Of a stretch of DNA of 64,000 nt, positions 7,782 through 60,025 are shown one piece after another. Under the pieces are notes generated by a model, which saw nothing but the letters and a program-made list of their open reading frames with translations, was not told the DNA's origin and made no database searches. Source of the stretch: Bacteroidales bacterium (lineage in GTDB: Bacteria; Bacteroidota; Bacteroidia; Bacteroidales; UBA12077); contig OY762280.1 of assembly GCA_963665525.1 (NCBI GenBank), positions 3,948,084 through 4,012,083 on the forward strand. Direction: 5' to 3'. Each line of letters opens with the position of its first letter. Position 1 is the first letter of the stretch. The translations under genes and the position numbers were made by a program.

Positions 7782-7791
7782 ATTATTTGTT

Positions 7792-8835: not shown

Positions 8836-8855
8836 TATGTTTAAATTGATTTAAC

Positions 8856-42752: not shown

Positions 42753-43802
42753 TTATGTGGTTTTAATTAATTTATCGAAATACATTGCAAACGAGCGATA
42801 TAAAAAGTGAGTCCATTTACCAAACGGAACTATTATTACAGCCCACTGTACAAGAACTATTAAATGGAATAAATACATCCAAAGGTTGTTTTCGATAATA
42901 TTTAAATCGATAAAAACTCTTACAATAAATGCTGTTAATCCCATTAAGAATAGCCAGATTACAAAAAACCAGTCCGATGGTTGTGAGAACTTGTTTACTT
43001 CTCTGTTTTTTCTAATTCTTCCAATCATAAATATGAATGTAATTGCAAAAATTGCAATACTTTCAATATATCCTAAAAGAATAATAAACATGTTTTCTGT
43101 CCCAAACCAATCTAGAACAACGGTAGTAAAAAGTAAAGCCAGATAACCAAATACAAGTATCATATGCATTAGCCAACGTCTATAACTATCGTCGCAACCC
43201 AAAGTTCGCTTTTGAGTAAACATATGAATAAACAGTTCTTTGGCTGTTAACAGATAGGTTTTAAATTTTACTTTTTTGCCTGGTTTTAATATTACAAACC
43301 ACCACATTCGTGCTAAGTTAGGAATAAGTATAACTGCAAAAACAGCAGCAATAGCAAGCATTTCGAATGTATGTCCAAAGTGCATAATTGCTTCGGTATT
43401 AAAATTTAGTTTAAAACTAAACCAAATAACTGCGATAGCAGTAGCAATAAATGCAAACAGACTAAAAAATAATGATTTGTATAATAGACCCGATAAACCG
43501 GTCCAGTCGTATTTTGCAGTAAGCCATCTTCTTAACGACATCATTAATTCGCCAGGATTAGCTTCTCGCGGACAAGTACTTGCACAATCGCCGCAATAAT
43601 AACATAACCAAGGATCTAATGATGATGTAATTTTCTGATCTAACCCAAGAACACTGGCACGCACCATTTTTCGTGGGAAAGAATTGTCTTTATCAGATAA
43701 GCTGCATACAGCAGTACAATTCCCGCAATTATAACACGCATTAAAATCGTTGTTACCGTATTTGAAGATTTCTTTTGCAAATTTAGGATTTATTCTTGCC
43801 AT
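42753..43802 (-). CDS. QmoC-like subunit: HdrC-type 2x[4Fe-4S] domain fused to a 6-TM cytochrome-b-like (HdrE/NarI-type) membrane domain
   Basis: It has two ferredoxin-type motifs (CYNCGNCTAVC and CYYCGDCASTCP). About six hydrophobic helices follow, carrying candidate haem-ligand His residues (HFGH, MHMIL, FHLIV, WTHF). Confidence 0.8.
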   Translation of the reverse strand: MARINPKFAKEIFKYGNNDFNACYNCGNCTAVCSLSDKDNSFPRKMVRASVLGLDQKITSSLDPWLCYYCGDCASTCPREANPGELMMSLRRWLTAKYDWTGLSGLLYKSLFFSLFAFIATAIAVIWFSFKLNFNTEAIMHFGHTFEMLAIAAVFAVILIPNLARMWWFVILKPGKKVKFKTYLLTAKELFIHMFTQKRTLGCDDSYRRWLMHMILVFGYLALLFTTVVLDWFGTENMFIILLGYIESIAIFAITFIFMIGRIRKNREVNKFSQPSDWFFVIWLFLMGLTAFIVRVFIDLNIIENNLWMYLFHLIVLVQWAVIIVPFGKWTHFLYRSFAMYFDKLIKTT

Positions 43803-43807
43803 ATGAT

Positions 43808-44086
43808 TTACTTTTTCAATTTGTAAAAATAGTATTCATCCATATCATCAATTTCCCCGGTTTCAATACTTCCGTATTTTTGCAAAGTCATTAAATGATA
43901 GGTGACTATATCAAAAGGAATACCTGTTTCTTTAGCAATTTGAGGAATGGTTTTATCTTCCGCTTCGAGAGCTTTCAGGATTTGTTTTTTTATCCTGTTA
44001 AACTCTTTCATTTTTTCTTTTACTTCATCGGAAACTTTCCTCGTTTTCTTAATAATGTCTATTGTTTTTTCCATAATATCTTGCAT
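43808..44086 (-). CDS. Small winged-helix DNA-binding-like protein (Cys-free)
   Basis: 92 aa. The pattern RIKKQILKALEAEDKTIPQIAKETGIPFDIVTYHLMTLQKYGSIE looks like an ArsR/MarR-type wHTH. The gene lies 2 nt and 5 nt from its neighbours inside the operon. Confidence 0.55.
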   Translation of the reverse strand: MQDIMEKTIDIIKKTRKVSDEVKEKMKEFNRIKKQILKALEAEDKTIPQIAKETGIPFDIVTYHLMTLQKYGSIETGEIDDMDEYYFYKLKK

Positions 44087-44088
44087 TA

Positions 44089-46023
44089 TTAATCAATTAA
44101 AGCTTCAATCATACTTTCCATTTCTTTGTCTGTGTATCCAATTAAGTCAATTGCATTTTCAGGACAAACAGGTAAGCACATTCCGCATCCTTTACATAAT
44201 GATTTATTTACAACAGCAACCTCTTTACCATCGGTTGTAGTTTTTGAAATAGCATCGTACGGACAAGCGTTAGAGCAGTTATCACACCACGAACATTTAT
44301 CGTTATGAATAACGGCCATGGTTGGTTCAAGTTCAATTTCGCCTAAGCTAACCAAAGAGTTTGCTTTAGATGCAGCCGATAGTGCCGATTTTACCGATTC
44401 GGTAATATTTAAAGGAGCCTGACAAGCACCTGAAATTAATACTCCATCGATAACGGTTTCTACAGGACGTAGCTTAGGATGTATTTCGTTAAAGAATTTA
44501 TCTCTACCAACAGGAACTTTAAGTAAGTTAACAATGCCTTCGTATTCTCTAGGAACCATTCCGGTTACTAAAACAACTAAATCAGCATTAATTTCTACTT
44601 CTTCGTTGTCGGTTAAAATATCTTTAATTTTAACTATAGTTTCGTTGCCAACATATTGAACTTCCGGAGGAGAATCTTCGAAAGATTGTAAGAAAATATC
44701 GCCAGCTTCGGATGCTTGATGATAAAGTTTCTCTTGCTTTCCGTAAGTTCTTATTCCACGGTTAAAATGGAAGTTATTAATGTTTGGATATTTTTCTTTA
44801 ACAAGAATCGCGGTATGAATTGCTGATGTACAGCAATAACGCGAGCAATATTTATTAGGCCCATCAACCTGACGACTACCAACACAATAGATGTAAGCTA
44901 TATTTTTAACTTCTTGATGATTGTATAATAATTTATCATTATTAAGTTCAATTAATCGCTTAAATTGCTGAAGTGTAATTACATTACTTACCTCATGGTA
45001 TCCAAATTCGCCTTTTTCAGGTTCATAAGGGTTAAATCCGGTACAAAGCTGAATAGCTCCAACAGTAATTTCTGTTTCGGTTTCAGTTTGTTCAAGATCA
45101 ATATCATCGCATATGGCCACACATTCGCCACATTTAGTACAAGCTTTATAATCAATTGCAGGAATTTCAGGAAACTCACTACAGTAGTTTTTAAAAATAG
45201 CTTTACGTTTTGTGATGTTAAAATTGAAATCGTCATCAACCTCAACAGGGCATACTTCAATAGCTTTTTGGAACTTCTCTTTATCAAGTTTGCAATCGGG
45301 TTTAATATAGCGTGGAATAGTTTTTAATTTAAGACTATATTCTCCAACACTACCTTTTTTCTCAGCAATTTCGGTTCCGGTATAAAGCGTAATTTTTGGA
45401 TGAGAAATAATTTCATTGTATAAACGAGATACTACTTCTTGTCCGGTTTCATTAGTTGTAAACAATACGTTCCATTGAGAGGTACGACCACCAACAAAAT
45501 GTTCGCGCTCAATTAAATGAACAGTCGTTCCCATTTCGGCAAGTTCCAAAGCAGCACGCATTCCTGCAATACCAGCACCAACAACAGCAATGGCATTTTG
45601 CGATGGAATTTTAACAGGAGTAAGTTCTTTTGAATATTTTACTCTTTCAATTCCTCCCTGAACTAATTTTATGGCCTTTTCGGTTGCCATTGGGGCATTA
45701 TCGGAATGTGCCCAGGAGCCTTGTTCACGGATATTAACCTGAACGTAATTGTAAGGATTTAACCCGGCGCGTATCGCTACATTTCTAAATGTAAACAAGT
45801 GTAATTTTGGAGAACAAGATGCAACAACTATAGCATCCAAACTTTGTTCTTTGATATCGTTAGCAATTTCTTGTTGTGTGGAATCGGCACAGGCAAACAT
45901 GGTTGTTTTTGCCAGTGTAACTCCTTCAACTTTTGCGGCAGCTTCTTTTACTTTTTCAACATCTACATAGTCGGAAATATTCGAGCCGCACATGCATACA
46001 TATACTCCAATTTTATTTTTCAT
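44089..46023 (-). CDS. HdrA-like FAD/FeS oxidoreductase (QmoB-like but lacking the MvhD domain)
   Basis: It has an N-terminal CMCG motif, the dinucleotide fold VVGAGIAGMRAALELAE, the HdrA signature CVGSRQ...YCSRYCC and a C-terminal 2x4Fe-4S (CSWCDNCSNACP, CKGCGMCLPVCP). It overlaps the upstream gene by 11 nt. Confidence 0.85.
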   Translation of the reverse strand: MKNKIGVYVCMCGSNISDYVDVEKVKEAAAKVEGVTLAKTTMFACADSTQQEIANDIKEQSLDAIVVASCSPKLHLFTFRNVAIRAGLNPYNYVQVNIREQGSWAHSDNAPMATEKAIKLVQGGIERVKYSKELTPVKIPSQNAIAVVGAGIAGMRAALELAEMGTTVHLIEREHFVGGRTSQWNVLFTTNETGQEVVSRLYNEIISHPKITLYTGTEIAEKKGSVGEYSLKLKTIPRYIKPDCKLDKEKFQKAIEVCPVEVDDDFNFNITKRKAIFKNYCSEFPEIPAIDYKACTKCGECVAICDDIDLEQTETETEITVGAIQLCTGFNPYEPEKGEFGYHEVSNVITLQQFKRLIELNNDKLLYNHQEVKNIAYIYCVGSRQVDGPNKYCSRYCCTSAIHTAILVKEKYPNINNFHFNRGIRTYGKQEKLYHQASEAGDIFLQSFEDSPPEVQYVGNETIVKIKDILTDNEEVEINADLVVLVTGMVPREYEGIVNLLKVPVGRDKFFNEIHPKLRPVETVIDGVLISGACQAPLNITESVKSALSAASKANSLVSLGEIELEPTMAVIHNDKCSWCDNCSNACPYDAISKTTTDGKEVAVVNKSLCKGCGMCLPVCPENAIDLIGYTDKEMESMIEALID

Positions 46024-47311
46024 GAGTACCTCCTCTCAAGTAGCCTGCAGTTTCTGAGGAAGCTGCTCCGGCCGATAATATTGAATCTGGGATATCCATT
46101 GGCCCTGATGCTGTTCCTGCTACATAAACCCCATCAATATTGGTTTGTGCAGGGTTGGCAAGTAAATCTCTTTGTTGAACATAATTAAATTGATCTAACT
46201 CAAGATTGTTGTTAAACATTGATTTAACACCATCGTTGGCTAAAATACCAGTCGATAAAACAACCATATCGTGATTCGCTTCTTTAACAGTTCCACTTTC
46301 AATATCCTCGTATCTTAACTTAAGGTCTCCATCTTCAATTTCTTCTATTTTACCAATCTTACCTTTAATAAAGCTTACACCCATATCTTTTGCTTGTTGG
46401 TAAAACTCGTTAAATCCTTTACCAAACGACCGTATGTGTAAGTAATAAATTGTGATATCGGCCATAGGTAATGCTCCCATTAAAAGCTGGGCTTGCTTAA
46501 TTGAATACATACAGCAAACTTGTGAACATATTGGATTTCCAACAGTTTCGTCGCGCGAACCAGCACATAATACATAAGCAATATTGTCGGGCATTTTACC
46601 ATCTTTAGGTCTTAGAACAGTATTGTATGGACGTGTTGGAACTAGCTGACGTTCCATTTGCATGGCTGTAAGTACATTTTTGAATTTTCCAAAACCGTAT
46701 CTTGGAATATTTTCTGCATCGAATAGTTTATATCCGGTTGCAATAATTACCGATTTTGCCTGAATAGCTATGTCTTGCTTTTCTTGAGTAAAATCGATAC
46801 AGTTTGCAGGGCAGGCTTTTTCACATGCTCCGCATAAGCTACAGTTTTCAATATCTATTGCAGCAACCCTGGGATTGGCAATACTAAAAGGTACATAAAC
46901 AGCTTTACGGCCAACTAAATCCCATTGATATTGGTCTTTTACCACTACAGGGCATTTGTCTTCGCAAATCTGGCATCCTGTGCATGATTCTTCATCAACA
47001 TAGCGTGGATACTTGGTTAAGGTAGCGCGAAAATCAAATTCAGACTTTTTATCAATATTACTTACCTGGCTGTTGGTATAAATAGTTATATTTGGATGTC
47101 TTGCTGTTTCGGATACTTTAGGTGTTGTAATACATGCAGAACAATCTAATGTTGGAAAAACCTTACTTAAGTGGATCATTTTACCACCCAGGGATAAGTC
47201 TTTTTCAACAATAATGACTTTATAACCTTGGTTTGCAAGGTTAAGAGCTGCTTCTTCTCCAGAAATTCCTCCACCAATAACAAGAACATCGTATTCTTCT
47301 GATTTTGTCAT
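46013..47311 (-). CDS. HdrA-like FAD/FeS oxidoreductase (QmoA-like)
   Basis: It has VLVIGGGISGEEAAL, FPTLDCSACITTPK and CAGSRDE...CSQVCCMY, matching HdrA signatures, plus two inserted ferredoxin motifs (CTGCQICEDKCP, CSLCGACEKACP). Confidence 0.9.
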   Translation of the reverse strand: MTKSEEYDVLVIGGGISGEEAALNLANQGYKVIIVEKDLSLGGKMIHLSKVFPTLDCSACITTPKVSETARHPNITIYTNSQVSNIDKKSEFDFRATLTKYPRYVDEESCTGCQICEDKCPVVVKDQYQWDLVGRKAVYVPFSIANPRVAAIDIENCSLCGACEKACPANCIDFTQEKQDIAIQAKSVIIATGYKLFDAENIPRYGFGKFKNVLTAMQMERQLVPTRPYNTVLRPKDGKMPDNIAYVLCAGSRDETVGNPICSQVCCMYSIKQAQLLMGALPMADITIYYLHIRSFGKGFNEFYQQAKDMGVSFIKGKIGKIEEIEDGDLKLRYEDIESGTVKEANHDMVVLSTGILANDGVKSMFNNNLELDQFNYVQQRDLLANPAQTNIDGVYVAGTASGPMDIPDSILSAGAASSETAGYLRGGTHEK

Positions 47312-47327
47312 ATTGAGTAATTTTTAG

Positions 47328-47729
47328 TTAATTCTCCGAAGCTTTAGATAATTGCTCATGAAATGTTTTCATGTGCTTTACAAAAGCTTCTGCACAAACG
47401 GAACATATAGCAGCCATTTTTAATCGGGCAGGATCCATATTTTTTTCTTTCATGATAGCATGAGTCGCTTGCACTATTTTTGATGTTTTTTCAGAACAAG
47501 TATCGCTATAAGGACAGTCGGTTCCGTCAGCAGCAATAAAAACACCATCGAATCCTTTTTCGAAAGCATGTAAAATCCATTGTGGTTTTACCGAGCTAGA
47601 ACAAGGAACATTAACAGTATAAACTGTTGCAGGATAATGTTTTTTAAGGAGCCCCGCCATATCGATCGCGGGGTCCGAAATTTTCTCAGTTGAAAAAACC
47701 AGAATCTTTGGATTCTTTAATTTTTCCAT
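47328..47729 (-). CDS. MvhD/FlpD-like iron-sulfur protein (hydrogenase delta-subunit family)
   Basis: 133 aa. The layout ILVFST...VPCSS...FDGVFIAADGTDCPYSDTC...AICSVCAEAF is typical of MvhD-type [2Fe-2S] proteins that partner HdrA. Confidence 0.8.
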   Translation of the reverse strand: MEKLKNPKILVFSTEKISDPAIDMAGLLKKHYPATVYTVNVPCSSSVKPQWILHAFEKGFDGVFIAADGTDCPYSDTCSEKTSKIVQATHAIMKEKNMDPARLKMAAICSVCAEAFVKHMKTFHEQLSKASEN

Positions 47730-47732
47730 CGT

Positions 47733-47984
47733 TTATCCTTTCTTCATGTAAATTTTGAAGTATCCTGACTCTTCTACTGTACCTAAGTAGTCGTGGCCTT
47801 TTTTAGCAGCCCACTTAGGGATATCTTTTTTAGTTCCTTCGTCGGCAGAAAGAACTTCCATAATTTGACCTGAAGTTATTTCGCCAATTGCTTTTTTAGC
47901 AGCTAAAAGTGGTCCTGGACATGCTGTTCCTCTTGCGTCGACTGATTTGTCAACATTTAATGCTTGTAATTCTTCTGTTGTCAT
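47733..47984 (-). CDS. TusA-family sulfurtransferase (second copy)
   Basis: 83 aa with the CPxP active-site motif in VDARGTACPGPLLAAKKAI. Confidence 0.9.
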   Translation of the reverse strand: MTTEELQALNVDKSVDARGTACPGPLLAAKKAIGEITSGQIMEVLSADEGTKKDIPKWAAKKGHDYLGTVEESGYFKIYMKKG

Positions 47985-48004
47985 AACTATATCTCCTTTA
48001 AATT

Positions 48005-48418
48005 TTAAATAAATAAATTAACGTCTGTTTCTTGAATAGACTCAATGTATTCTCCAATTCCACAAATGTCATCAACCACATCAATGAAATCTTCGATTTT
48101 TTCTCCACCGGCAATTTTACCTGCTAAACTGCAGATATGGATTTTTACTTCGGTCATTTCTTTTGCCATTTCGAAAAACTCAATCCACGATGGTGTTGAT
48201 AAGCTTTCGAGAGCAGCTTTAAATTCGTCGGGTGTTTGAACATCTTCGCTCATATTTGATATATCGGCAGCTTTACTTTTTAAGAATGCATGACCTGCAT
48301 TTACCAGAACAAATAAATCTACTTCCATATCGTCGGCAGCAGCACCACTTAAAATAACGCCAACACTTGTTAATTTATCGATGCTTGATGTGCTCAAACC
48401 TATTGTCATTTTTGCCAT
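48005..48418 (-). CDS. DsrE/DsrF-like sulfur-relay family protein
   Basis: 137 aa with an alpha/beta pattern (VGVILSGAAADD...DLFVLVNAGHAF...KIHICSLAG) typical of the DsrE_2/COG2210-type relatives of DsrE. The candidate active Cys is in HICS. Confidence 0.75.
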   Translation of the reverse strand: MAKMTIGLSTSSIDKLTSVGVILSGAAADDMEVDLFVLVNAGHAFLKSKAADISNMSEDVQTPDEFKAALESLSTPSWIEFFEMAKEMTEVKIHICSLAGKIAGGEKIEDFIDVVDDICGIGEYIESIQETDVNLFI

Positions 48419-48443
48419 AATAATTCAATTTTTGTATTAAAGA

Positions 48444-48947
48444 TTAACCTCCACAGCCTCCGCTCGATTCTTCTTTTTTAGGTTCTGCAACAGGTGCAGC
48501 TTCACCCATTCCTTGTTCAACTAATTCAGGATAAGTTGCTTCCCAATCGAACCAGCTAAAATCAAGCAAATAACAATCGGAATATTTTAATAATTCCAGA
48601 GATTGAACAGCTAATGCACCGCTACCCATTTCGTTACCAATTACTAAAGTTTTTATTCTACGATTTGATATTTTACCCGAGAATTCCAGTAATCCGCGAG
48701 GAATATGAATTGATCCCGGAATGTGGCCAAGTATAAAATCATAATCTTCGCGACAATCAACAATTTGAATCTCAGTGTGATTATCAATTAGATTTTTTAA
48801 TTCTTCCATGCCCAATGTTTTGATTTCTGCTTTTGCAGCAGCTATCATATCATCTACATTTTCATAAACTGTATTATCTTTCTGAACACAGCTTGATAAT
48901 AAGATGATTGACAATAAGGTCGGAAAAATGAATTTTATAAATCTCAT
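48444..48947 (-). CDS. Rhodanese-domain lipoprotein without active-site Cys, ending in GGCGG
   Basis: It has the lipobox LLSSC and a rhodanese core (IVDCREDYDFILGHIPGSIHIPRG). The active-site loop reads LVIGNEMGSGALA, with no Cys. A Pro/Glu/Ala linker follows, then the C-terminal SSGGCGG and a stop. Confidence 0.8.
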   Translation of the reverse strand: MRFIKFIFPTLLSIILLSSCVQKDNTVYENVDDMIAAAKAEIKTLGMEELKNLIDNHTEIQIVDCREDYDFILGHIPGSIHIPRGLLEFSGKISNRRIKTLVIGNEMGSGALAVQSLELLKYSDCYLLDFSWFDWEATYPELVEQGMGEAAPVAEPKKEESSGGCGG

Positions 48948-48958
48948 AATTACTTATT

Positions 48959-49765
48959 TTATAATTTCCATTCGTTGTATGCTCCGTCGTAAACTTTTAC
49001 GTTAGGATACTCAAGAACTGAAGTTAATGCAAGATATACTATCCCGGCTCTTACGCTGGTTGCACAGTAAAGAATAATTTCTTTGTCTTTGGTAATACCT
49101 GCACCATTAAATAATGCTTGTAAATCTTCTTTTGATTTAAGTTTACCGCCATCGGCTAAAACATTTTTATACTCTAAGTGCTTAGCACCTTCGATGTATC
49201 CTTCTGCCCATTCTGTATCGTCTCTAACATCAACAAGAATAGCCGACTTTAATTTAGATTTTACATAAGCTTTATCGGCAAAGATTTTAGCATTTACTTT
49301 AGGAGTAAATGTTACAGCAGCTTTTTTTGTTGCAGCATTTGTAACTGGACCTCTTGCGGTTCTCCATGCTTGCATATGACCATCCATAACTTTCACATCG
49401 TTGAATCCTAAATATTTTAGAATCCAGTATAAACGGCCTGCACCTTTATTTGAACCTGTATCGTAAATGATGATTTTTTTAGCTGGATCAATTCCTTTTT
49501 CTCCTAAGATAGTAGCTAGTTCAGCTGGAGATTTAAGAATTCCTTTAGGATCAGTTGTGCTTGCTAAGTCGTTAATGTTCACATTAACCGCATTTCTGAT
49601 ATGCACTTTTGCATAATCGGCTGGAGTTCTAGTAGATACAATAACAGCATCTTTGCTATTCACTAATTTCTTAGCTTCGGCAGCAGAAATTAAATCCTGA
49701 GCAAAAGAAAGATTTGCGAATATAGCTACTAATAAAAGACTAAATAATATGTTTTTTAATTTCAT
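48959..49765 (-). CDS. Secreted two-domain rhodanese (thiosulfate sulfurtransferase type)
   Basis: It has a signal peptide (LSFA|QD). The N-domain loop IYDTGSNKGAGR is inactive (Asp in place of Cys). The C-domain loop LYCATSVRAG is active. Confidence 0.9.
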   Translation of the reverse strand: MKLKNILFSLLLVAIFANLSFAQDLISAAEAKKLVNSKDAVIVSTRTPADYAKVHIRNAVNVNINDLASTTDPKGILKSPAELATILGEKGIDPAKKIIIYDTGSNKGAGRLYWILKYLGFNDVKVMDGHMQAWRTARGPVTNAATKKAAVTFTPKVNAKIFADKAYVKSKLKSAILVDVRDDTEWAEGYIEGAKHLEYKNVLADGGKLKSKEDLQALFNGAGITKDKEIILYCATSVRAGIVYLALTSVLEYPNVKVYDGAYNEWKL

Positions 49766-49776
49766 AATTTCGTTTA

Positions 49777-50823
49777 TTAAAATTTAACCTGAACTTGCAA
49801 TACAACCTGATCGTTAGGAATTTCTAAAGCTTGTTCTGCTTTGTATCTGTAATTTAATTGAACACGTGTCCAATCGTTTAAGAAATAGTTTAATCCAAAT
49901 GTCATGATTGTTTCAGAGTTGTCGTCGATATCTACGTCAGAATCAAAGCATTCAAATTTGAATACTGGTTGTAAATTCCATCTTGTAGTATACATTGCCT
50001 GTGCAAAATAACCGCTACGAGTTACACCACCAGTATGATATTCGATTGGTGTACCATCGCAACCACCACCAGTTGTGTAATCGCCAGTATCATCGGCCCA
50101 AAGATATTCTGCCTGAAATAAGAAATTTCCGGTTTTTATTTGTACTTCGCCACCTAAACGAGTTTTCTCGTTATCTTCTTCGGCACCTGTTTTACCATAG
50201 GCAAAACTACCGCCTACCTGAAGAAAATCAACAGGAGCAAATGTTAATCTTCCTTTTATACTTTTAGCTTTGTTTTCATCTTCGAAACCTTTTTCATAAT
50301 CATTCATTAAAGCTAAATAGTAGTTGATTTTAGAGTCGAGAAGACTACCAAAAACCATAGCTCCCATATCGCGTTGCGGACCTGCTAGTTCGTCAACAGC
50401 TTTTGAACGATAGATAGTATGAAGAGACTGACAAGGTGTGTTTTGCTCTAAACTTAATGGCGATTTAAACTGACCAAAGCTTATTTTGGCAAAATCGTAT
50501 CGTGAATAAGTCACAAATGCATCTAGTAACCATGGCGATCCTGATTTGAATCGAGAGAAATCAACCATGAAGAAATAACTTACATCGTAAGGAATATTTC
50601 CAACTGCAGCTATTCTTGCACGGTTAAAGGTAAAGCTGTTAGCATCTTTACCATCGGTAGTTTGATAATATTCCCACTGTGGCTGAATGTAACCTTTAAT
50701 GCTTACTCCTTCGTCGGAAGAAGCTTCCATACATCCTTGTGCAGAAACAAGCTGTGTAGATGTTAATACCACAAGAATTGAGAGGCTAAATATTGATAAT
50801 ATCTTTTTAATCATTTTTTTCAT
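49777..50823 (-). CDS. Outer-membrane porin, phosphate-selective porin O/P-like family
   Basis: It has a signal peptide (LVSA|QG), an N-terminal FTFNRARIAAVGNI block like the porin O/P family, a beta-strand periodicity and the C-terminal ...VLQVQVKF. Confidence 0.75.
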   Translation of the reverse strand: MKKMIKKILSIFSLSILVVLTSTQLVSAQGCMEASSDEGVSIKGYIQPQWEYYQTTDGKDANSFTFNRARIAAVGNIPYDVSYFFMVDFSRFKSGSPWLLDAFVTYSRYDFAKISFGQFKSPLSLEQNTPCQSLHTIYRSKAVDELAGPQRDMGAMVFGSLLDSKINYYLALMNDYEKGFEDENKAKSIKGRLTFAPVDFLQVGGSFAYGKTGAEEDNEKTRLGGEVQIKTGNFLFQAEYLWADDTGDYTTGGGCDGTPIEYHTGGVTRSGYFAQAMYTTRWNLQPVFKFECFDSDVDIDDNSETIMTFGLNYFLNDWTRVQLNYRYKAEQALEIPNDQVVLQVQVKF

Positions 50824-50832
50824 ATTTTTAAT

Positions 50833-50866
50833 TAAAAAATAAGCTAAGTAGCTTTTGCTACCCAGC
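50833..50866 (-). terminator. Intra-operon terminator/attenuator-like hairpin (minus strand)
   Basis: The minus-strand RNA reads gcugggtagc-aaaa-gcuacuuagc, a 10-bp stem with two G-U pairs, followed by uuauuuuuu. On the plus strand the same positions would be A-C mismatches. Confidence 0.45.
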
Positions 50867-50877
50867 TTAAATATTTT

Positions 50878-51843
50878 TTATTCTAATGGTAAGTCAGTAA
50901 TTGCTGTAGCATCCCACTTGTGTGAAGTAAGATTATCATAAATCATACTATTAACACCATTTTTTAAACTGTGTGGAGTATAACCTAATACATATAAATA
51001 AGCTGTTACCATTGAAGAAGTTTGTCCTGTCCAGCAATATGTTACCACATCTTTTGATGGATCAAGATACATATATTCTCCACCAGCTAATGTTAAAGGC
51101 TTAATTCGGTATGCACCAGAAATGTGTCCGTAAGTTGTAACATCAGCCGCATCCCAGAAATTATTTACATAGTAACTTCCTGGACTAGCTAATACGTCAG
51201 ACCCAGCAACACCTTGGAAACCAGCTGTTAATAATGCAGTAACTCTTGCGGCAAGAATTTCAGCACCTGTTCCTGTAGTTGTAATATCAGGATCGTCGAA
51301 TTGAGTAGTTTGAGTACTTACAGCACCAGGAGCAGCAATCCAGTTAGGGCTATCAATTGTATTACATGAACCACTCCATGAGTCAAGGCTGGTATGCCAT
51401 CCACTCATTCCCCATTTTAATACTTTGGCATCAGTATAACCGCTTAAACGTAAAGCAACGGTTCCATGTCCTGCTCCTTGTCCGCTATAACAAACAACAA
51501 TAATTGGTTTTCCGGCAGCATTACCTGCTTCGGTAACAATATTACCTAAAGTTGAATTTACTGCTCCAGGAATATGACTTGTGTTATATGCGTCAGAAGA
51601 TCTGATATCAATTATATAATAAGAGCTTAGGTTATCTTTTATAGCATCAGCAGTAGTGATCCAGTCAGTTAGTATATTATCCAAATCCAAATCGTTAGCT
51701 ACTAAGTACTCTTTTAGAATCTGAAATTCAGTGTCGGTTTGACGGTCTGGAGTTGCATCGTCATCACTGTCGTCTTTACAAGATGTTAAAACAAATGCAG
51801 GAATAATTAAAATTAATAATGCGTACTTTAAAAACTTTTTCAT
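50878..51843 (-). CDS. Lipoprotein with two rhodanese-like domains and an acidic post-Cys tract
   Basis: The lipobox VLTSC is followed by KDDSDDDATPD. Two rhodanese modules carry the loops VVCYSGQGAGHG and TYCWTGQTSS. I chose the ATG at 51843, because the longer ORF overlaps the upstream gene. Confidence 0.8.
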   Translation of the reverse strand: MKKFLKYALLILIIPAFVLTSCKDDSDDDATPDRQTDTEFQILKEYLVANDLDLDNILTDWITTADAIKDNLSSYYIIDIRSSDAYNTSHIPGAVNSTLGNIVTEAGNAAGKPIIVVCYSGQGAGHGTVALRLSGYTDAKVLKWGMSGWHTSLDSWSGSCNTIDSPNWIAAPGAVSTQTTQFDDPDITTTGTGAEILAARVTALLTAGFQGVAGSDVLASPGSYYVNNFWDAADVTTYGHISGAYRIKPLTLAGGEYMYLDPSKDVVTYCWTGQTSSMVTAYLYVLGYTPHSLKNGVNSMIYDNLTSHKWDATAITDLPLE

Positions 51844-51878
51844 AGTATTATAAATTTTGGTTAGTATTTTCTTATTTA

Positions 51879-52355
51879 TTATCCTCCACAACCACCTGAC
51901 TCAGGTTGCTTAGTAATAGCAGGGGCTCCGCCTGAAAATTTCATCCAACCACCTTTAAGGTTAGATATATTTTCGAATCCCAATTTTTGAAGTGATTTTG
52001 CAGCAAGAGCACCACGGCCACCTACTTTGCAATACACAATAATTTTATCAGTTTTTAGAGGGGTGTACATGAATTGCTCTTCCCAGAAATATTCATCAAG
52101 AATAAGGAATTCTAATTCACCACGAGGAATAGAGAATGATCCCGGAATATTTCCTGCTTCGTATTCGGAAGGTTGTCTTACATCTATTAAAAGGAATTCT
52201 TCTCCATTATCAATCATCGATTTTAAAGTATCGACAGATATTTCATTTATTTCGGTTGCAACAACACTAGCTAATTCTTTACCATCTTCATATATGGCAG
52301 TACAAGAAGAAAACAAGAAGATGAGCAGTGCTGCGATTGATATATTAAATTTCAT
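51879..52355 (-). CDS. Rhodanese lipoprotein with intact active-site Cys, ending in GGCGG
   Basis: It has the lipobox LFSSC, the core LIDVRQPSEYEAGNIPGSFSIPRG and the active loop IVYCKVGGRGALA. The C-terminus reads ...APAITKQPESGGCGG followed by TAA. Confidence 0.85.
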   Translation of the reverse strand: MKFNISIAALLIFLFSSCTAIYEDGKELASVVATEINEISVDTLKSMIDNGEEFLLIDVRQPSEYEAGNIPGSFSIPRGELEFLILDEYFWEEQFMYTPLKTDKIIVYCKVGGRGALAAKSLQKLGFENISNLKGGWMKFSGGAPAITKQPESGGCGG

Positions 52356-52381
52356 AATTTTGTTTTTAATAGTTTCAATAA

Positions 52382-53596
52382 TTAAAAAGCACTGAATTTT
52401 CCTGTGCGTTCATTCCACTTAACAAATACATACCATATTAGTATTACTACAAGAACTAGAATAAAAGCTCCAGCATAGCCTAAATAGTCAGGCAAATAAT
52501 TTTTGAACTTCATTGTATGAGGGAGTGCATCAACGATTGCAGGAACAATATATTTTTTAGAAATAGGGGATACAAGTAAGAATCCTAATGCAGCCATCCA
52601 TAATTTAACCTGCCCTTCGCCTACACGCCAAAGTGTTCCAACGGCACATCCTCCGGCAACAGTCATTCCTAATCCAAAAATAAATCCTCCTAAAAGACCA
52701 CGTAACCAGAAATGTCCAAAAACCCAGGTCATTTCACGAGCACGAATAGTAGCATCGCCTGCACCAATACCAAAATATTTAATGGCAGTGAAACCTATTA
52801 ATGTAATAACTAAACCGGCCATTACTCCAACAGAACCATCGCTTTCGCCTGTCATAAAAGGATCGCGGAATGCTTTAACGATACAAAAGCGTGATCGTTG
52901 GCAAATGAGTCCCATTAATAATCCTGAAATTATAAACCAGGCTAATACGCCATTGGTTCCGGCAACTCTATATGCAAGAACAAAAGTTCCGATAGAAACG
53001 ATCCATCCTAACCAGATTTGCCATTTTCCTGTTTTTTCTGATGCAGCAAGGAAAGTAAAACTTTTACCTGTGCTAAAAGAAGGGAACTTTTCCATTTCCC
53101 AAAGCAAGTATTTAAGAGCAATTATAGTACCAGCAAAAAGTCCTATAGTAAAAATAATTGCTCCACCTGATAATGCTGGGACACCCGAGAAAAATGAACC
53201 AATTGTACAACCTAATCCCAGAGTTGCTCCAATAGCCATTAATGCACCTCCAATAAATCCTTTTATTAATTCTCCTTTAGGAGGTATTCGTAAGGCAAAT
53301 TCTTTTGAGAAGAGAGCTCCGGCAAATGATCCTAAAACCAGTATCAGGCAAAGCATACCATAAAGACTGGTACTTGTAGGTGCAGCATTTTCAAAAGCAG
53401 AAATACCCAGGAGCTTAAAAATATTCTCACCCCAGTTATTAATACCACCACTAGCACCCCAAGGACTTTTTACGGTAAATAGTAAAATGTTTAGTAGTCC
53501 CAGAGTAACACCACCAACCCATACTGGCCAGTGTTTGGCGAAAAAAATATTAAATAATTCGCGAAGTATTCCTGGCTCTTTTTGTTGATCAGCCAT
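52382..53596 (-). CDS. YeeE/YedE-family sulfur-compound (thiosulfate-type) transporter
   Basis: 404 aa and polytopic. It has the repeated Cys-containing motifs LGLGCTIGSFFSG, GLICQRSRFC and VAGGCAVGTLWRVGEG that are characteristic of YeeE/YedE. Confidence 0.9.
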   Translation of the reverse strand: MADQQKEPGILRELFNIFFAKHWPVWVGGVTLGLLNILLFTVKSPWGASGGINNWGENIFKLLGISAFENAAPTSTSLYGMLCLILVLGSFAGALFSKEFALRIPPKGELIKGFIGGALMAIGATLGLGCTIGSFFSGVPALSGGAIIFTIGLFAGTIIALKYLLWEMEKFPSFSTGKSFTFLAASEKTGKWQIWLGWIVSIGTFVLAYRVAGTNGVLAWFIISGLLMGLICQRSRFCIVKAFRDPFMTGESDGSVGVMAGLVITLIGFTAIKYFGIGAGDATIRAREMTWVFGHFWLRGLLGGFIFGLGMTVAGGCAVGTLWRVGEGQVKLWMAALGFLLVSPISKKYIVPAIVDALPHTMKFKNYLPDYLGYAGAFILVLVVILIWYVFVKWNERTGKFSAF

Positions 53597-53605
53597 TTTT
53601 ACCTC

Positions 53606-53836
53606 CTACTTTTTTTGTATTAGAAACCTGAAAACACCATTTTCAACTTCACCTTCTTCAAGTAAAGCGTTTCCTGTTTTTTCACACCATTTTGGTAGGT
53701 CTGATTTTGTTCCAGGATCGGTTCCTAACATTTCAAGCACATCTCCAGAACCTAATCCTTTAATTGCTTTTGCCAGTTTCATCATTGGCATAGGACATGA
53801 AAGCCCTTTTACGTCTAATGTTTCTTTAATTTCCAT
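53606..53836 (-). CDS. TusA-family sulfurtransferase (first copy, paired with YeeE)
   Basis: 76 aa with the motif LDVKGLSCPMPMMKLAKAI (CPxP). It lies 9 nt upstream of the YeeE gene. Confidence 0.9.
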   Translation of the reverse strand: MEIKETLDVKGLSCPMPMMKLAKAIKGLGSGDVLEMLGTDPGTKSDLPKWCEKTGNALLEEGEVENGVFRFLIQKK

Positions 53837-53954: not shown

Positions 53955-53968
53955 CTGATTTAGATCAA
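53955..53968. promoter_or_regulatory. Candidate Crp/FNR-type operator (cTGAT-N4-ATCAA)
   Basis: CTGATTTAGATCAA matches 9 of 10 positions of TTGAT-N4-ATCAA. It lies in the divergent region between the sulfur operon (ATG at 53836) and the Crp/Fnr gene (ATG at 54026). Confidence 0.4.
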
Positions 53969-54025: not shown

Positions 54026-54721
54026 ATGGAAAAGATATCTGCTTTAAATAGTTGTACAGTAAGCAATGCAAAATGTATTTGTTTTGATTTATTGACGCCA
54101 GAACAAAGAGAATTGATTGAAAAAAATTCGATTGATGTTCGATATAAGAAAGGTGAAGTAATTTGTAAACATGGTACTTTTGCTCCACATGTTATTCTAC
54201 TTAAAGAGGGCTTGGCAAAAATTTATTTAGAGGGTTTAAATGATTCCTTAATCTTAAAAATAATTACTTCGGGTAATTTAATTGGGTTAACTTCTGTTAT
54301 GGAAGATAATAATGTGTTTCATTATTCAGCATCGGCATATGTTGATTCTTCTGCCAGCTTAATAGATATCAATATCTTTAGAAAAATTCTTAAAGAAAAT
54401 GCCGAATTTGCAAATTCGGTAATAAATATTTTATGTGAAAATTCCTTACAAACTTTCGGAAGATTTTTCTGCTTAACACATAAACAACTATATGGTAGAA
54501 TGGCAGATATTATCTTATGTTTATCTGAAAGAATCTTTAAAGAAAAAAGTTTTGTTTTAAATCTTACAAGAAAAGAGCTGGCTGAATTAACAGGGATGTC
54601 AACGGAAAGCGTTATACGAATGCTTAAGAAATTTAAAGATGACGGAATAATAGAACTGCAAGGAAAGGAAGTCGTTATTTCAAATTATGATTTATTGCGT
54701 AAGATTAGCGAATATGGATAA
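54026..54721 (+). CDS. Crp/Fnr-family transcriptional regulator
   Basis: It has a cNMP-binding-like beta-barrel and a C-terminal HTH (TRKELAELTGMSTESVIRMLKKF). The N-terminus carries the Cys residues CTVSNAKCIC. Confidence 0.9.
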   Translation: MEKISALNSCTVSNAKCICFDLLTPEQRELIEKNSIDVRYKKGEVICKHGTFAPHVILLKEGLAKIYLEGLNDSLILKIITSGNLIGLTSVMEDNNVFHYSASAYVDSSASLIDINIFRKILKENAEFANSVINILCENSLQTFGRFFCLTHKQLYGRMADIILCLSERIFKEKSFVLNLTRKELAELTGMSTESVIRMLKKFKDDGIIELQGKEVVISNYDLLRKISEYG

Positions 54722-54724
54722 TAT

Positions 54725-55417
54725 CTATCCATTTTTACTTATCTCTTTTAGTAGTTCCAGGTTTAAGATCTTTATTTTTTTACCCTTTAGCTGAATAATT
54801 TTTTCATCATTAAATTCTGATAATATTCGGGCAACACTTTCAATGGCCATTCCGGAAAGCTCGGCTAAATCTTTTCGATTAACATATGAAAATACATCAA
54901 TTGATTTAAACTCTTCTCTGTTTAAGTATAATAATACATTAGCTAATTTTCCATTTAATTGTTTTAAACCAAGGTTTAAACATTTGGTTAACATAATATT
55001 GTAGTTTTTACAATACCAACTTGCTAATTCGCGAGAAAAATCGCAGCTCATAGAGATTAAGTCTTTAATGGCATTTTGATTAATTGCACATACTTTTGTT
55101 TCAGTAATTGCAGCTGCTGAGAAATAATAGGAATCGTCGCCGTATAAAGAGGTTAATCCAATAAAATCATGCGGTTTTAGTAGTTTGATGATAATATTTT
55201 TACCGGGACCTTCGATGTATACTTTTACTAATCCATTAAGAACATATAAAATATCAGATACACGTGTGCCTTCTTTAATTATTGTTTCTCCTTTGTTATA
55301 TGTAACATGGGTTTTGACTAGATTATTAAACTCATCAATTATTTCAATATCCTGGATAAAACATTCCGATTTTCTGTTGCAATCTGTACAGTTAGTTTTT
55401 ATTAAATATCTGTCCAT
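54725..55417 (-). CDS. Crp/Fnr-family transcriptional regulator (paralog, convergent)
   Basis: It has the same architecture, with the HTH NRKDLAELSGMAIESVARILSEF and the N-terminal Cys cluster CTDCNRKSEC. Confidence 0.9.
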   Translation of the reverse strand: MDRYLIKTNCTDCNRKSECFIQDIEIIDEFNNLVKTHVTYNKGETIIKEGTRVSDILYVLNGLVKVYIEGPGKNIIIKLLKPHDFIGLTSLYGDDSYYFSAAAITETKVCAINQNAIKDLISMSCDFSRELASWYCKNYNIMLTKCLNLGLKQLNGKLANVLLYLNREEFKSIDVFSYVNRKDLAELSGMAIESVARILSEFNDEKIIQLKGKKIKILNLELLKEISKNG

Positions 55418-55558: not shown

Positions 55559-56038
55559 CTACAGAGTGAATTCTAGCGGAATATCTTTTTTTGAATTAGA
55601 AAGCATTTTGTTTAAGATCGCTTCTTCTTGGTGAGTTTTTTTCAGCATATAGTAGAAAACATTAGCTACAGTTTCGCTTAATTCATTTTCCGAAGCTAAG
55701 ATATTGTAAAGCTTGATTAGACAATTATCAAAATGCAATTTAATATCGATTAATTCTGTCATGGATAAATTTGGTCCTGTTTTGATGTTTGTAAAACATT
55801 CATTTATTTGATCCGATAATTTTTCACAGGGGAAACATAACCAGCAGTTCATTACTTCCGCTACTTTTTTATGTTTTTCTAAATAGATTTCTCGAGATTT
55901 CTCATGTTGAAACAAATCATAAATCAATGATTTCATTTCTTGGTCCTCTATCTTTTCATAAATATTAAGATATAAATTAGCTAATTGTTTATGATAAGAT
56001 TGGATTTTTTCTATAATCTTACTTTTTTGTTTATACAT
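55559..56038 (-). CDS. Hypothetical helical protein
   Basis: The ORF has good coding character. I chose the ATG at 56038 (MYKQKSK...). It contains CWLCFPCEK. I recognise no family. Confidence 0.5.
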   Translation of the reverse strand: MYKQKSKIIEKIQSYHKQLANLYLNIYEKIEDQEMKSLIYDLFQHEKSREIYLEKHKKVAEVMNCWLCFPCEKLSDQINECFTNIKTGPNLSMTELIDIKLHFDNCLIKLYNILASENELSETVANVFYYMLKKTHQEEAILNKMLSNSKKDIPLEFTL

Positions 56039-56352
56039 AGTTCTTATTGTTTTAAGGTTGCTAAAATTCAGAAAATCAACTATTGAGTAGTTGTTGTTCT
56101 TATAAATAAAGGTAGTAAGATTAATGTTTAAAATCATTTGATGATAGTGTTTTTATATCAAGAAAAACTTTGAGATTTATCAAATTATTTGATTTGTACT
56201 GAGATATTTTAATTCAAATTGGTCAGAAATAAATTATAGGTTCATAAGAATTAAACCTTTATAAAAAATCAATATCAAATTAACAGATTGATAATTAGAG
56301 TTACTTTATTTAAGAATGTTTATATTTACATCTCTTTGTATTAACCGATTTG

Positions 56353-56733
56353 ATGAAAAATAGTGCGCGATTAAATAAAATCATTGTATTCATTGTTCTT
56401 CCGGCAATTAGCTGGCTATTCTTTAATTCAGTTTATTACAGACATTTACATGAGCTTCCTTCGGGAATAACAATTTCACATGCTCATCCATACGATAAAA
56501 CATCTGATAATAATTCAACTTGTCCTTTTTCTTCTCATGATCATACAGAAGATGAGTACTTACTTTACGATGTGATGTCGAATTTAATTGTTCCGATTGT
56601 ATTTGTATTGTTTGCCATTGCTACTTTTTTTACTGCCATTATACAAGATTATAGATTCGAATTAAAAGAATCTATTTATCAATCTGAGTTTTACCTCTAC
56701 AAAAACTATCGGGGACCACCAGCAAAATTCTAA
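56353..56733 (+). CDS. Small 2-TM membrane protein with a His-rich loop
   Basis: The loop HLHELPSGITISHAHPYDKTSDNNSTCPFSSHDHTEDE lies between two hydrophobic helices. It is the first gene of the metal-uptake cluster. Confidence 0.55.
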   Translation: MKNSARLNKIIVFIVLPAISWLFFNSVYYRHLHELPSGITISHAHPYDKTSDNNSTCPFSSHDHTEDEYLLYDVMSNLIVPIVFVLFAIATFFTAIIQDYRFELKESIYQSEFYLYKNYRGPPAKF

Positions 56734-56835
56734 ATCATACAATCAAGCTATATGTTCATATAGTGCCTTTTACAATTAGAATTTTATGTAATATAATCCA
56801 TGTATTAGCTACAGGGGTGGTAATAACTAATCATC

Positions 56836-58113
56836 ATGAAAATAAAAATATTTTTGGTACTGATATTCCTAATTAATATCAGTTTATCTTATGCACAGTC
56901 CGAAGGTGAATTGGCAACACGTATCGATTCTTTAGAGTTTCAATTAAAACAACTGCAAAATAAAATTGAGAAGAAAGAAAAGAAAGATGAATTAAAAGAG
57001 CTGATGGACAGGGCAAAGCATCTTTCATCACAAGAGAAAAAAGAGAGTAGTGATATTTCTAAAAAATTCCATAGTGGTATACGTCAACAACAAGGATTAA
57101 ATCCAAACATTAGTGTTAGTGGCGATTTTTTTACTTCGTACAGCACAGCCGAAAATGATATTATTAATGAACCAAGTGAGTTTTCATATGGAAATAATAA
57201 TTTTTATATGCGAGAACTTGAGTTGGCTTTAGTGGCACCACTCGATCCGTTTACTCGTGGAAAAACATTCTTAAGCATTACTGATGAAGGTCTTGAGTTA
57301 GAAGAAGCTTATATGGAGTTAATAAACCTGCCATTAAATATGAATTTAAAAGCAGGTATTTTTCATGCAGAGTATGGATTATTAAACAGATATCATCCTC
57401 ATGCTTTACCTCAGTTCGATAAACCAAAGGCTTTGATGTATCATTTTGGAGAAGGAGGATTAGGAGGTGCAGGTTTAGCAGTTAATTTTATGTTTCCAAA
57501 ACCTATTTTAGCTGATGCCAGCTCGTTCGATTTTACTGTTGTTGATGGAGGCAATGGAATGAGCTATACTACCGACCGAGATATTAATCTGCTTTATATT
57601 GGTAATTTTAAAAACTATTATGATATTAACGATGATAGTTACTTCGAATTTACCTTAGCTGGTGTAACAGGACAAAATGATAGTACTGGAAATTATAATT
57701 CTCATATTGGAAGTTTAGGTTTGCACTACAAATGGTCTCCGGTAGGCAGATCAAAGTACAGAACATTCGACTGGAAAACGGAGTTTATTTATGGATATCA
57801 CGAGGGAGCTTTAAAAGATATAGAAACTTTTGGTTGTTATACATCGCTTCAAAATAAATTGAATGCACGATTTTGGATTAGTGGTAGAGTAGGATACACA
57901 GAACTTCCTTATAATAAATCTGAATACGAAATCGACTATTCTATTTGTTTGGACTTCTGGCAAAGTGAATTTGTGTTTTTCCGATTTCAATATCAATATA
58001 ACGACAGGCATATTGATAATATGATGGGCTATATGGGAAAAATGCCAAGCGATCATGTATTTACATTACATGTTAACTGGGCTATGGGACCACATAAACA
58101 TGAGGCATATTAA
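56836..58113 (+). CDS. Putative outer-membrane beta-barrel/porin with N-terminal coiled coil
   Basis: It has a signal peptide (SYA|QS), a Lys/Glu coiled-coil segment, a beta-strand-rich body and an aromatic C-terminal residue. Confidence 0.6.
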   Translation: MKIKIFLVLIFLINISLSYAQSEGELATRIDSLEFQLKQLQNKIEKKEKKDELKELMDRAKHLSSQEKKESSDISKKFHSGIRQQQGLNPNISVSGDFFTSYSTAENDIINEPSEFSYGNNNFYMRELELALVAPLDPFTRGKTFLSITDEGLELEEAYMELINLPLNMNLKAGIFHAEYGLLNRYHPHALPQFDKPKALMYHFGEGGLGGAGLAVNFMFPKPILADASSFDFTVVDGGNGMSYTTDRDINLLYIGNFKNYYDINDDSYFEFTLAGVTGQNDSTGNYNSHIGSLGLHYKWSPVGRSKYRTFDWKTEFIYGYHEGALKDIETFGCYTSLQNKLNARFWISGRVGYTELPYNKSEYEIDYSICLDFWQSEFVFFRFQYQYNDRHIDNMMGYMGKMPSDHVFTLHVNWAMGPHKHEAY

Positions 58114-58138
58114 AATAGAAACATATAAAAAATTAGAT

Positions 58139-59164: not shown

Positions 59165-59166
59165 TT

Positions 59167-60006: not shown

Positions 60007-60025
60007 ACGGATAAAATTATTAAAT

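Follow-up and report, generated by a model that had tools for sequence, protein, structure and literature searches.

Known sulfur carriers and the RhdA locus

In SoxY, the cysteine of a C-terminal GGCGG motif is the established covalent sulfur-binding site (PMC6067878), and this Cys, on a mobile "swinging arm," carries sulfur intermediates in Sox thiosulfate oxidation (PMC6067878, PMC11237559). A proposal from Hyphomicrobium extends the route inward, from the SoxY Cys to three Cys of the YeeE-like importer SoxT and then to TusA, DsrE3, and an Hdr-like system; periplasmic carrier-bound sulfur is described there as entering the cytoplasm via YeeE-like importers "by unknown means" (PMC11582611). 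Here we describe RhdA, a 158 amino acid lipoprotein that ends in the same motif but has a rhodanese domain as its body. It is encoded on the minus strand at 51879-52355 of a 64,000-nucleotide stretch (hereafter the window) of a Bacteroidales genome (assembly GCA_963665525.1, contig OY762280.1). The original prediction, made from these letters alone, had proposed a self-loading sulfur carrier, i.e., one whose catalytic Cys charges its own arm.

Like SoxY, RhdA is exported and has the Cys of its C-terminal GGCGG on a predicted mobile arm, and the route proposed from SoxY through a YeeE-like importer to TusA, DsrE, and an Hdr-like system matches the gene order of the RhdA operon. Unlike SoxY, the body of RhdA is a rhodanese alpha/beta domain, its export is of the Sec/lipoprotein type, its linker is long and hypervariable, and the tail in its family may also read GGC, GGCG, or GGCGD. 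No SoxZ, SoxXA, or SoxB was found among the window open reading frames (ORFs) scanned (those outside ~28-37 kb), nor among the called genes of the related loci inspected. RhdA is thus not a SoxY family member, by both its domain content and its missing partner proteins, and its likeness to SoxY is one of convergence and not of homology; it nevertheless appears to work like SoxY.

Single-domain rhodaneses provide the second comparison. Sud of Wolinella succinogenes (PDB 1qxn) is periplasmic and carries sulfur on a Cys in polysulfide respiration. To our knowledge, the active-site Cys is the only functional Cys in Sud and in PspE/GlpE-type rhodaneses, which are soluble and have neither a C-terminal Cys arm nor a lipid anchor. 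RhdA shares their single-domain rhodanese fold, but in its family it is the active-site Cys that is dispensable and the tail Cys that is near-invariant (168/172 homologs). A Cys on a flexible C-terminal arm also acts as a substrate carrier in DsrC/TusE; DsrC differs in fold, is a protein of the cytoplasm, and relies on two Cys.

Two gene clusters resemble the RhdA operon in part. Its cytoplasmic half (YeeE, TusA, and DsrE) is like that of the Rhd-TusA-DsrE2 and YTD (YedE-TusA-DsrE) clusters, whose descriptions mention no Qmo-like module, no porin of their own, and no periplasmic rhodanese lipoproteins with a tail. The outer half recalls Geobacter sulfurreducens, with its rhodanese-like lipoprotein ExtH, the porin ExtI, and the multiheme polysulfide reductase MccSep needed for S(0) respiration (PMC13510729). 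By analogy, this cluster is a functional precedent for the outer half of the relay proposed below. The Geobacter study states as unknown the route of polysulfide to the periplasm, and as open its routing, or that of elemental sulfur, across the outer membrane and periplasm to the reductase (PMC13510729). The description of ExtH given there, on which the present comparison is based, mentions no Cys arm.

The RhdA protein

The elements of RhdA, and its paralog in the same operon, are as follows.

51879..52355, minus strand: RhdA, the gene under study; a 158 amino acid lipoprotein with an ATG start, a single rhodanese domain, and a C-terminal GGCGG arm
52302..52355, minus strand: RhdA signal peptide and lipobox Cys18 (MKFNISIAALLIFLFSSC); lipidation predicted
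51933..52238, minus strand: RhdA rhodanese domain, residues 40-141; catalytic Cys109 at 52029-52031, in the loop CKVGGR
51897..51932, minus strand: RhdA polar flexible linker, residues 142-153, GGAPAITKQPES; predicted coil with falling predicted local distance difference test (pLDDT) score
51882..51896, minus strand: RhdA GGCGG tail; Cys156, at 51888-51890, is the proposed covalent sulfur-carrying residue
48444..48947, minus strand: RhdB, the second tailed rhodanese lipoprotein of the operon, 167 amino acids, ending ...KKEESSGGCGG; tail codons at 48447-48461

Each element named in the original prediction was found where it had been placed: the ORF and its coordinates, LFSSC with Cys18, IVYCKVGGRG with Cys109, and the ...GGAPAITKQPESGGCGG terminus. 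The translation begins with MKFNISIAALLIFLFSSC and TAIYEDG, continues through IVYCKVGGRG, and closes with GGAPAITKQPESGGCGG, so that the C-terminus reads ESGGCGG. The tail is encoded by GGT GGT TGT GGA GGA (51896-51882) followed by TAA (51881-51879), with a second TAA immediately beyond (51878-51876).

The prediction of a non-SoxY, rhodanese body also held. Rhodanese (PF00581) is the only Pfam domain in RhdA at E<=0.01, covering residues 40-141 (E=9e-21; 74.7 bits against a cut-off of 22.2), and the SoxY domain was not found. Neither RhdA nor RhdB exceeds the cut-off of any NCBIfam model, and RhdA does not match ExtH. The AlphaFold2 model, built with 66 homologs, has a mean pLDDT of 91.3 and a rhodanese alpha/beta core to about residue 140, after which residues 141-158 are coil and pLDDT drops to ~61. 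The nearest structures to the core by Foldseek and phmmer are 6mxv, 2hhg, human TSTD1, and Wolinella Sud (Foldseek probability 1.00). Cys109 aligns with the catalytic Cys of 6mxv and 2hhg, and the active site, C109-K-V-G-G-R114, is the six-residue C-X4-R loop of sulfurtransferases and not the seven-residue Cdc25/Acr2 type. By fold and loop, RhdA is a member of the rhodanese superfamily. It has a lipobox (MKFNISIAALLIFLFSS-C18), and Cys18 is invariant in 66/66 aligned homologs and present in 73/74 copies of RhdA in related loci.

RhdB, which had escaped the original prediction, is 31% identical to RhdA. Its signal peptide ends LLSSC, and its active-site loop reads LVIGNEMGSGA, the catalytic Cys being replaced by Gly-Asn. 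AlphaFold2 gives it a rhodanese fold with a tail (residues 150-167) at pLDDT <50. Fifty homologs of RhdB were found, 48 of which terminate in GGCGG or GGCGD. RhdB retains the catalytic Cys in some species, and it adjoins DsrE in most related loci.

Conservation of the C-terminal tail

A homolog search over 5.8 billion protein clusters yielded 120 RhdA homologs at 37-91% identity, and pooling these with the homologs from the RhdB search gave a family of 172 sequences. Conservation of the tail, which the original prediction had made the first check of its claim, is nearly complete: 168/172 homologs have a Cys within their last four residues. Of the four exceptions, one is also without the catalytic Cys because of an evident frameshift. 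The catalytic Cys, by comparison, is present in 106/172 and absent from 64/172. Because of this difference, we regard the arm Cys as the conserved functional residue of the family. The two Cys part company in both searches. Fifteen RhdA-search homologs carry Ser in place of the catalytic Cys and keep the tail, and in all but one of the 50 RhdB-search homologs the catalytic position is Gly, with almost all of them keeping the tail Cys. The rhodanese domain of the family can thus, as judged from these substitutions, be catalytically dead.

The same conclusion follows from position-by-position conservation. An alignment of 66 RhdA homologs, reaching down to 36% identity, has only ten invariant columns; these include lipobox Cys18 and tail Cys156 but exclude Cys109, which was retained in 66/74 locus copies. 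The tail Cys and not the catalytic one is therefore the invariant residue. When the family is right-aligned, entropy falls from ~3 bits per column in the linker to 0-1 bit in the G-G-C-G tail. The linker is hypervariable, with a median length of 18 and a range of 5-40 across the family. Together with the predicted coil, this pattern bears out the idea of a functional, conserved tail carried by a flexible linker. The termini themselves vary slightly: among the 120 RhdA homologs, 64 end in GGCGG, 10 in GGCGD, and seven in SGCGG, and more distant homologs (170-188 amino acids) terminate in ...GGC.

Related loci were collected in a search seeded with 24 closer sequences and come from 69 genome-database species. 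Across them, every tail position shows synonymous change (Cys is TGT in 39 and TGC in 23, and all four Gly codons are used), and TAA, TGA, and TAG all occur as the stop. A wrong stop or reading frame, which the original prediction had listed as a way in which it might fail, is ruled out by the recurrence of the same terminus in independent assemblies with three different stop codons. Frameshifts are evident in two individual sequences: homolog P0056, which is without the catalytic Cys, and the copy in locus L022, where the tail ...SSGGCGG is encoded in the +1 frame. We also looked for a selenocysteine variant of the tail and found none; no listed homolog stops just before the Cys position, and one locus copy (L071) is simply without both Cys.

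The tail is also specific. An ending of the form [GSA]GC(G[GDE]) is found in 2/252 window ORFs (stop-to-stop, >=50 amino acids), and both are the rhodanese lipoproteins of the operon. In the related loci, 128/3,515 ORFs have such a tail, and 125 of these match operon rhodaneses (123 RhdA/RhdB and two RhdT, the tandem rhodanese described below). A profile search over 1.84 billion representatives (15 billion proteins clustered at 50% identity) brought up mainly multi-domain rhodaneses and was used for tail sampling only; the representatives sampled placed the tail on many more lipoprotein rhodaneses, some with two or three matched rhodanese stretches.

Organization of the operon

The operon spans ~11 kb (42753-53836, minus strand), in the order TusA-YeeE-RhdA-Rhd2L-porin-RhdT-RhdB-DsrE-TusA-MvhD/FlpD-HdrA/QmoA-like-HdrA/QmoB-like-small ORF-QmoC-like. 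The sulfur-trafficking surroundings are thus as the carrier idea would have them; tight coupling to YeeE and TusA was absent from the original prediction. In the direction of transcription, the genes other than RhdA and RhdB, and the adjacent regulatory features, are as follows.

53606..53836, minus strand: TusA-like cytoplasmic sulfur carrier 1, 76 amino acids, with a CPMP motif (Pfam TusA, 9e-25)
52382..53596, minus strand: YeeE/YedE-family inner-membrane sulfur transporter, 404 amino acids, directly upstream of RhdA (Pfam Sulf_transp, 2.7e-52)
50878..51843, minus strand: Rhd2L, two-domain rhodanese lipoprotein, 321 amino acids from the ATG at 51843; lipid Cys followed by KDDSDDD
49777..50823, minus strand: OprO/P-type outer-membrane porin, ExtI-like, 348 amino acids (Pfam Porin_O_P, 1.7e-14; NCBIfam ExtI, 2e-12, below cut-off)
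48959..49765, minus strand: RhdT, secreted tandem rhodanese, 268 amino acids (Pfam Rhodanese, 1.7e-39); type-I signal peptide, catalytic Cys in domain 2
48005..48418, minus strand: DsrE-like protein, 137 amino acids (Pfam DrsE_2, 3e-8)
47733..47984, minus strand: TusA-like carrier 2, 83 amino acids
47328..47729, minus strand: MvhD/FlpD-like iron-sulfur protein (Pfam FlpD, 5e-30); five Cys conserved in 49/49 copies
46013..47311, minus strand: HdrA/QmoA-like protein
44089..46023, minus strand: HdrA/QmoB-like protein
43808..44086, minus strand: small 92 amino acid ORF between the QmoB-like and QmoC-like genes
42753..43802, minus strand: QmoC-like membrane subunit
54026-54721, plus strand, and 54725-55417, minus strand: two Crp/Fnr-family regulators (Pfam)
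53955-53968: candidate FNR/CRP box, palindrome CTGATTTAGATCAA, in the intergenic region between the divergent tusA1 and Crp/Fnr genes, ~132 bp upstream of the former

Several of these proteins fall short of the curated models that they resemble. RhdT scores 64.6 bits against the ExtH (NF040901) cut-off of 200, and its match to 3-mercaptopyruvate sulfurtransferase is likewise below cut-off; the porin scores 46.6 bits against the ExtI (NF040900) cut-off of 150. The two HdrA/Qmo flavoproteins match NCBIfam HdrA2 at 4.5e-140 and 7.7e-170 and the membrane subunit matches QmoC at 1.5e-46, all below the equivalog cut-offs. The scanned parts of the window yielded no Apr, Sat, or Dsr gene.

The Cys that would pass sulfur along the operon proteins are strongly conserved. 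Cys130, Cys238, and Cys317 of YeeE are kept in 65/65 copies, Cys96 of DsrE in 68/68, both catalytic Cys of Rhd2L (Cys119 and Cys271) in 48/48, Cys234 of RhdT in 55/55, and Cys14 of TusA in 107/109.

Regulation by a Crp/Fnr protein is suggested by the recurrent position of the box upstream of tusA, which constitutes weak to moderate evidence. Boxes lie ~135-137 bp upstream of tusA in six other loci, a box at <=1 mismatch is present in 13/59 loci (roughly 7-fold over background), and a divergent Crp gene stands opposite tusA in nearly all related loci. Over the whole window, the number of box matches is not above chance (120 against 108 expected).

Two minor points of annotation concern the operon. 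An ORF for Rhd2L from TTG 51891 would overlap the RhdA tail, and ATG 51843 is probably the real start. The 92 amino acid ORF at 43808-44086 has a counterpart of similar size and position, without a Pfam match, in locus L003.

Synteny and other operon types

YeeE lies directly upstream of RhdA in 65 of the 69 species loci, and the full operon order is kept in essentially every locus that is long enough. The carriers are Bacteroidales, Tenuifilaceae, Marinilabiliales, Lentimicrobiaceae, Draconibacterium, and Paludibacter, together with one metagenome-assembled genome (MAG) labeled Sphingobacteriia and one labeled Chlorobiota. The same operon is present in a MAG of another phylum, Krumholzibacteriota. 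By our reading of the isolate labels, the source MAGs apparently come from sulfidic springs or caves, cold seeps, the deep Black Sea, and sediments.

A second architecture (type II) was found in five loci (L001, L002, and L068-L070), which are without YeeE, TusA, and Qmo genes. Their gene set comprises a Crp/Fnr regulator, an octaheme cytochrome c, a PhsC-like cytochrome b, a rhodanese ending ...GGC, Rhd2L, the porin, and the tandem rhodanese RhdT. The cytochrome belongs to the tetrathionate-reductase (OTR) family (TIGR04315, 559 bits against a cut-off of 375), has eight CXXCH motifs, and has hydrophobic segments at both its N- and C-termini. As in the Geobacter ExtH/ExtI/MccSep set, type II loci pair a rhodanese lipoprotein and an OprP-like porin with a multiheme cytochrome; unlike it, the cytochrome is an octaheme OTR-type protein and not a pentaheme selenoprotein, and neither ExtH nor ExtI is matched at a score near the cut-off of its model.

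Tailed rhodaneses also occur beside YeeE and TusA in otherwise unrelated operons (L076-L079), wherever the context can be read. The rhodaneses in such operons (L076/L077, L078, L079, and L058:17350-17991) have one to three rhodanese domains, and their partners are a TrxB-like flavoprotein, or multiheme cytochromes with Rieske/cytochrome b and ATP sulfurylase; the YeeE of L076/L077 is encoded by two separate genes. In two further cases (L040:10719-11624 and L056:9934-10839), RhdT itself (301 amino acids) ends ...SSDGGC; going by this sequence, another rhodanese scaffold has apparently acquired the tail.

Predicted topology

In Bacteroidetes, the lipoprotein export signal is K-(D/E)2 or Q-A-(D/E)2 directly after the lipid Cys (PMC5080379). 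The C-KDDSDDD of Rhd2L matches the K-(D/E)2 signal, and K-D-D-x-D-D follows the lipid Cys in most species; RhdA (C-TAIYEDG) and RhdB (C-VQKDNT) have no such signal. Rhd2L is therefore predicted to be surface-exposed and RhdA and RhdB to face the periplasm.

A proposed sulfur relay

We consider it reasonably probable that RhdA and RhdB are SoxY-like swinging-arm carriers with rhodanese bodies, feeding sulfane sulfur to the Cys relay of YeeE. Both would be membrane-tethered and periplasm-facing, with the rhodanese domain as the body and, as the working residue, the invariant glycine-flanked Cys, placed by a disordered polar linker (~15-30 residues) at the far end of the arm. Sulfane sulfur would be bound covalently to this Cys, in the form of a persulfide, a polysulfide, or possibly an S-thiosulfonate. 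Loading could take place in cis from Cys109, in those proteins that have it; in trans from two further rhodaneses of the operon, the surface Rhd2L and the secreted tandem RhdT; or by direct reaction with polysulfide. The small Gly-Cys-Gly tip of the arm would then hand this sulfur on to the channel of the adjoining YeeE, with its relay of three Cys. From there, sulfur would presumably move to TusA, DsrE, and the second TusA and then to the MvhD/HdrA/Qmo-like module, a redox system that would connect with the quinone pool; both the cargo chemistry and the direction of electron flow are presumed. In type II loci, the tailed carrier would instead present its cargo to the periplasmic OTR-family octaheme cytochrome c with its PhsC-like cytochrome b partner.

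This carrier model is more than an analogy because the GGCGG Cys of SoxY is a precedent for the arm and the proposed SoxY-to-SoxT transfer is one for the hand-off. The conservation data strongly support a carrier arm. The "self-loading" of the original prediction fared less well: it is possible in cis where Cys109 is present, but it cannot be general because Ser or Gly replaces the catalytic Cys in homologs that nearly all keep the tail Cys, and it is thus at most an optional mechanism. By its length, the arm could touch every part of the domain that bears it, as ~16 residues past the last helix at 3.4 Å each extend to ~50 Å, compared with a domain of ~35-40 Å.

A number of points weigh against the model. 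The reach of the arm to Cys109 or to YeeE is an estimate by length arithmetic, and the case for the cargo and its hand-off is made from conservation and gene neighborhood. The membrane that anchors RhdA and RhdB could be the inner or the outer one. The L071 copy of RhdA ends at TAA with neither Cys. YeeE is below all four relevant NCBIfam cut-offs (136 bits against 350 for YedE/FdhT; 95 and 93 against 400 and 645 for the TsuA models); from these scores, the operon YeeE would be a distinct subfamily of Sulf_transp. The scanned genes of the cytoplasmic module include no HdrB-type (CCG) catalytic subunit, which, with Apr, Sat, and Dsr also missing from the scanned window parts, leaves the relay without an evident terminal redox reaction. 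Finally, characterized YeeE/TsuA imports free thiosulfate without a protein donor, according to the statement in PMC13047784 that cites Tanaka 2020 and Ikei 2024, and the periplasmic rhodaneses might therefore simply make thiosulfate.

Alternative explanations

Taken further, that last point becomes an explanation in which the periplasmic rhodaneses only interconvert free species (e.g., polysulfide + sulfite -> thiosulfate), YeeE imports the free anion, and the tail Cys, instead of carrying sulfur, serves as a thiol in protection or regulation, binds a metal, or marks the protein for sorting or processing. It has the behavior of characterized YeeE/TsuA, which works on free thiosulfate with YeeD/TusA, in its favor, and periplasmic rhodaneses have been proposed as thiosulfate producers in other anaerobes. 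We judge it unlikely, as it fails to explain a perfectly conserved tail on rhodanese domains without a catalytic Cys, or the recurrence of that tail on one-, two-, and three-domain rhodaneses specifically beside YeeE. The Cys stands at varying distances from the terminus (GGC, GGCG, GGCGG, and GGCGD), a point against a motif recognized by a protease or sortase, and no transmembrane or CTERM-type sorting domain follows the Cys.

C-terminal resolving Cys are common in thiol enzymes, and the tail Cys might instead attack the persulfide or thiosulfonate on Cys109, free sulfide or sulfite, and form an intramolecular disulfide to be reduced by a periplasmic reductant; RhdA would then be a self-contained thiosulfate/polysulfide reductase or a redox switch. 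RhdA does combine an intact CX4R loop with an arm long enough to fold back, and both Cys are kept in 106/172 family members. However, the model does not fit the 64/172 that are tailed but without a catalytic Cys, including RhdB and all but one of its 50 homologs; the operon genes scanned include neither a periplasmic thiol-disulfide oxidoreductase nor a DsbD-like gene; and the strict adjacency of YeeE is left unexplained. A resolving role is, to our minds, quite improbable.

Equally hard to credit is that the arm carries selenium (or tellurium) and that the operon is a system for uptake and reduction of selenite or Se(0). The names of the nearest models suggest it: the best NCBIfam match of YeeE is the selenium-related YedE/FdhT model, TusA matches YedF, and the porin and RhdT match ExtI and ExtH, both from a Geobacter selenite/tellurite operon, ExtI taking up selenite to go by the title of a reference cited in PMC13510729. 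All four matches are nevertheless far below curated cut-offs, whereas dissimilatory sulfur metabolism is typified by DsrE, two TusA, and a module of the Qmo/HdrA-like or OTR type. An operon of ~13 genes under putative Crp/Fnr control is also large for a trace element, the enzyme linked to Geobacter ext proved to reduce polysulfide and to be required in S(0) respiration, and the source MAGs, as we read their labels, are apparently from sulfidic habitats.

A chance motif or an assembly artifact, suggested by nothing beyond the shortness of the motif, is excluded by a tail found in 168/172 proteins and in 69 species with synonymous substitutions and three stop codons, and present among 252 window ORFs only in the two rhodanese lipoproteins.

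Novelty and implications

No Pfam or NCBIfam model and no paper on a rhodanese with a C-terminal Gly-Cys arm was found in databases and in a literature search that reached a minority of subscription journals, in keeping with the novelty that the original prediction had suspected. The homologs of RhdA are annotated just as "rhodanese-like domain-containing" or "hypothetical," and the arm is therefore invisible in metabolic reconstructions. RhdA joins a known fold and a known carrier principle in an apparently undescribed architecture, within what is apparently an uncharacterized envelope-spanning sulfur relay.

With a lone terminal Cys, and a gene beside YeeE and TusA in dozens of species, the tailed-rhodanese family offers a compact and testable answer to two questions: how carrier-bound sulfur enters the cytoplasm, and how polysulfide or elemental sulfur is routed to its reductase. 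Were the carrier model true, the GGCGG-arm solution of SoxY would have evolved independently on a rhodanese scaffold, and the operon would be an uncharacterized system of sulfur respiration or import that is widespread in anaerobic Bacteroidota.

A wider interpretation, which we offer tentatively and hold to be possible but doubtful, is that tailed rhodaneses are an unrecognized class of extracytoplasmic swinging-arm carriers, convergent with SoxY and docking on YeeE-family importers, and the middle link of an unbroken chain of Cys in Bacteroidota and Krumholzibacteriota. Such a chain may run from the surface rhodanese lipoprotein through the porin, periplasmic rhodaneses, arm carriers, YeeE, TusA, DsrE, and TusA to a Qmo/HdrA-like module or an OTR-type cytochrome. 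On this wider interpretation, organisms usually deemed fermenters would have a new type of energy metabolism based on zero-valent sulfur, thiosulfate, or tetrathionate.

Other features of the window

Beyond the regulators, three ORFs of 192, 127, and 425 amino acids (55559-58113) have no Pfam match at E<=0.001 and lie upstream of a ZnuA/ABC-3 metal-uptake cluster (58055-60886). A TetR regulator and an OEP/HlyD/AcrB resistance-nodulation-division (RND) efflux system occupy 5709-11951. At 18647-19012, a small protein has a type IX secretion system (T9SS) C-terminal sorting domain (Por_Secre_tail), which fits the Bacteroidota origin of the DNA.

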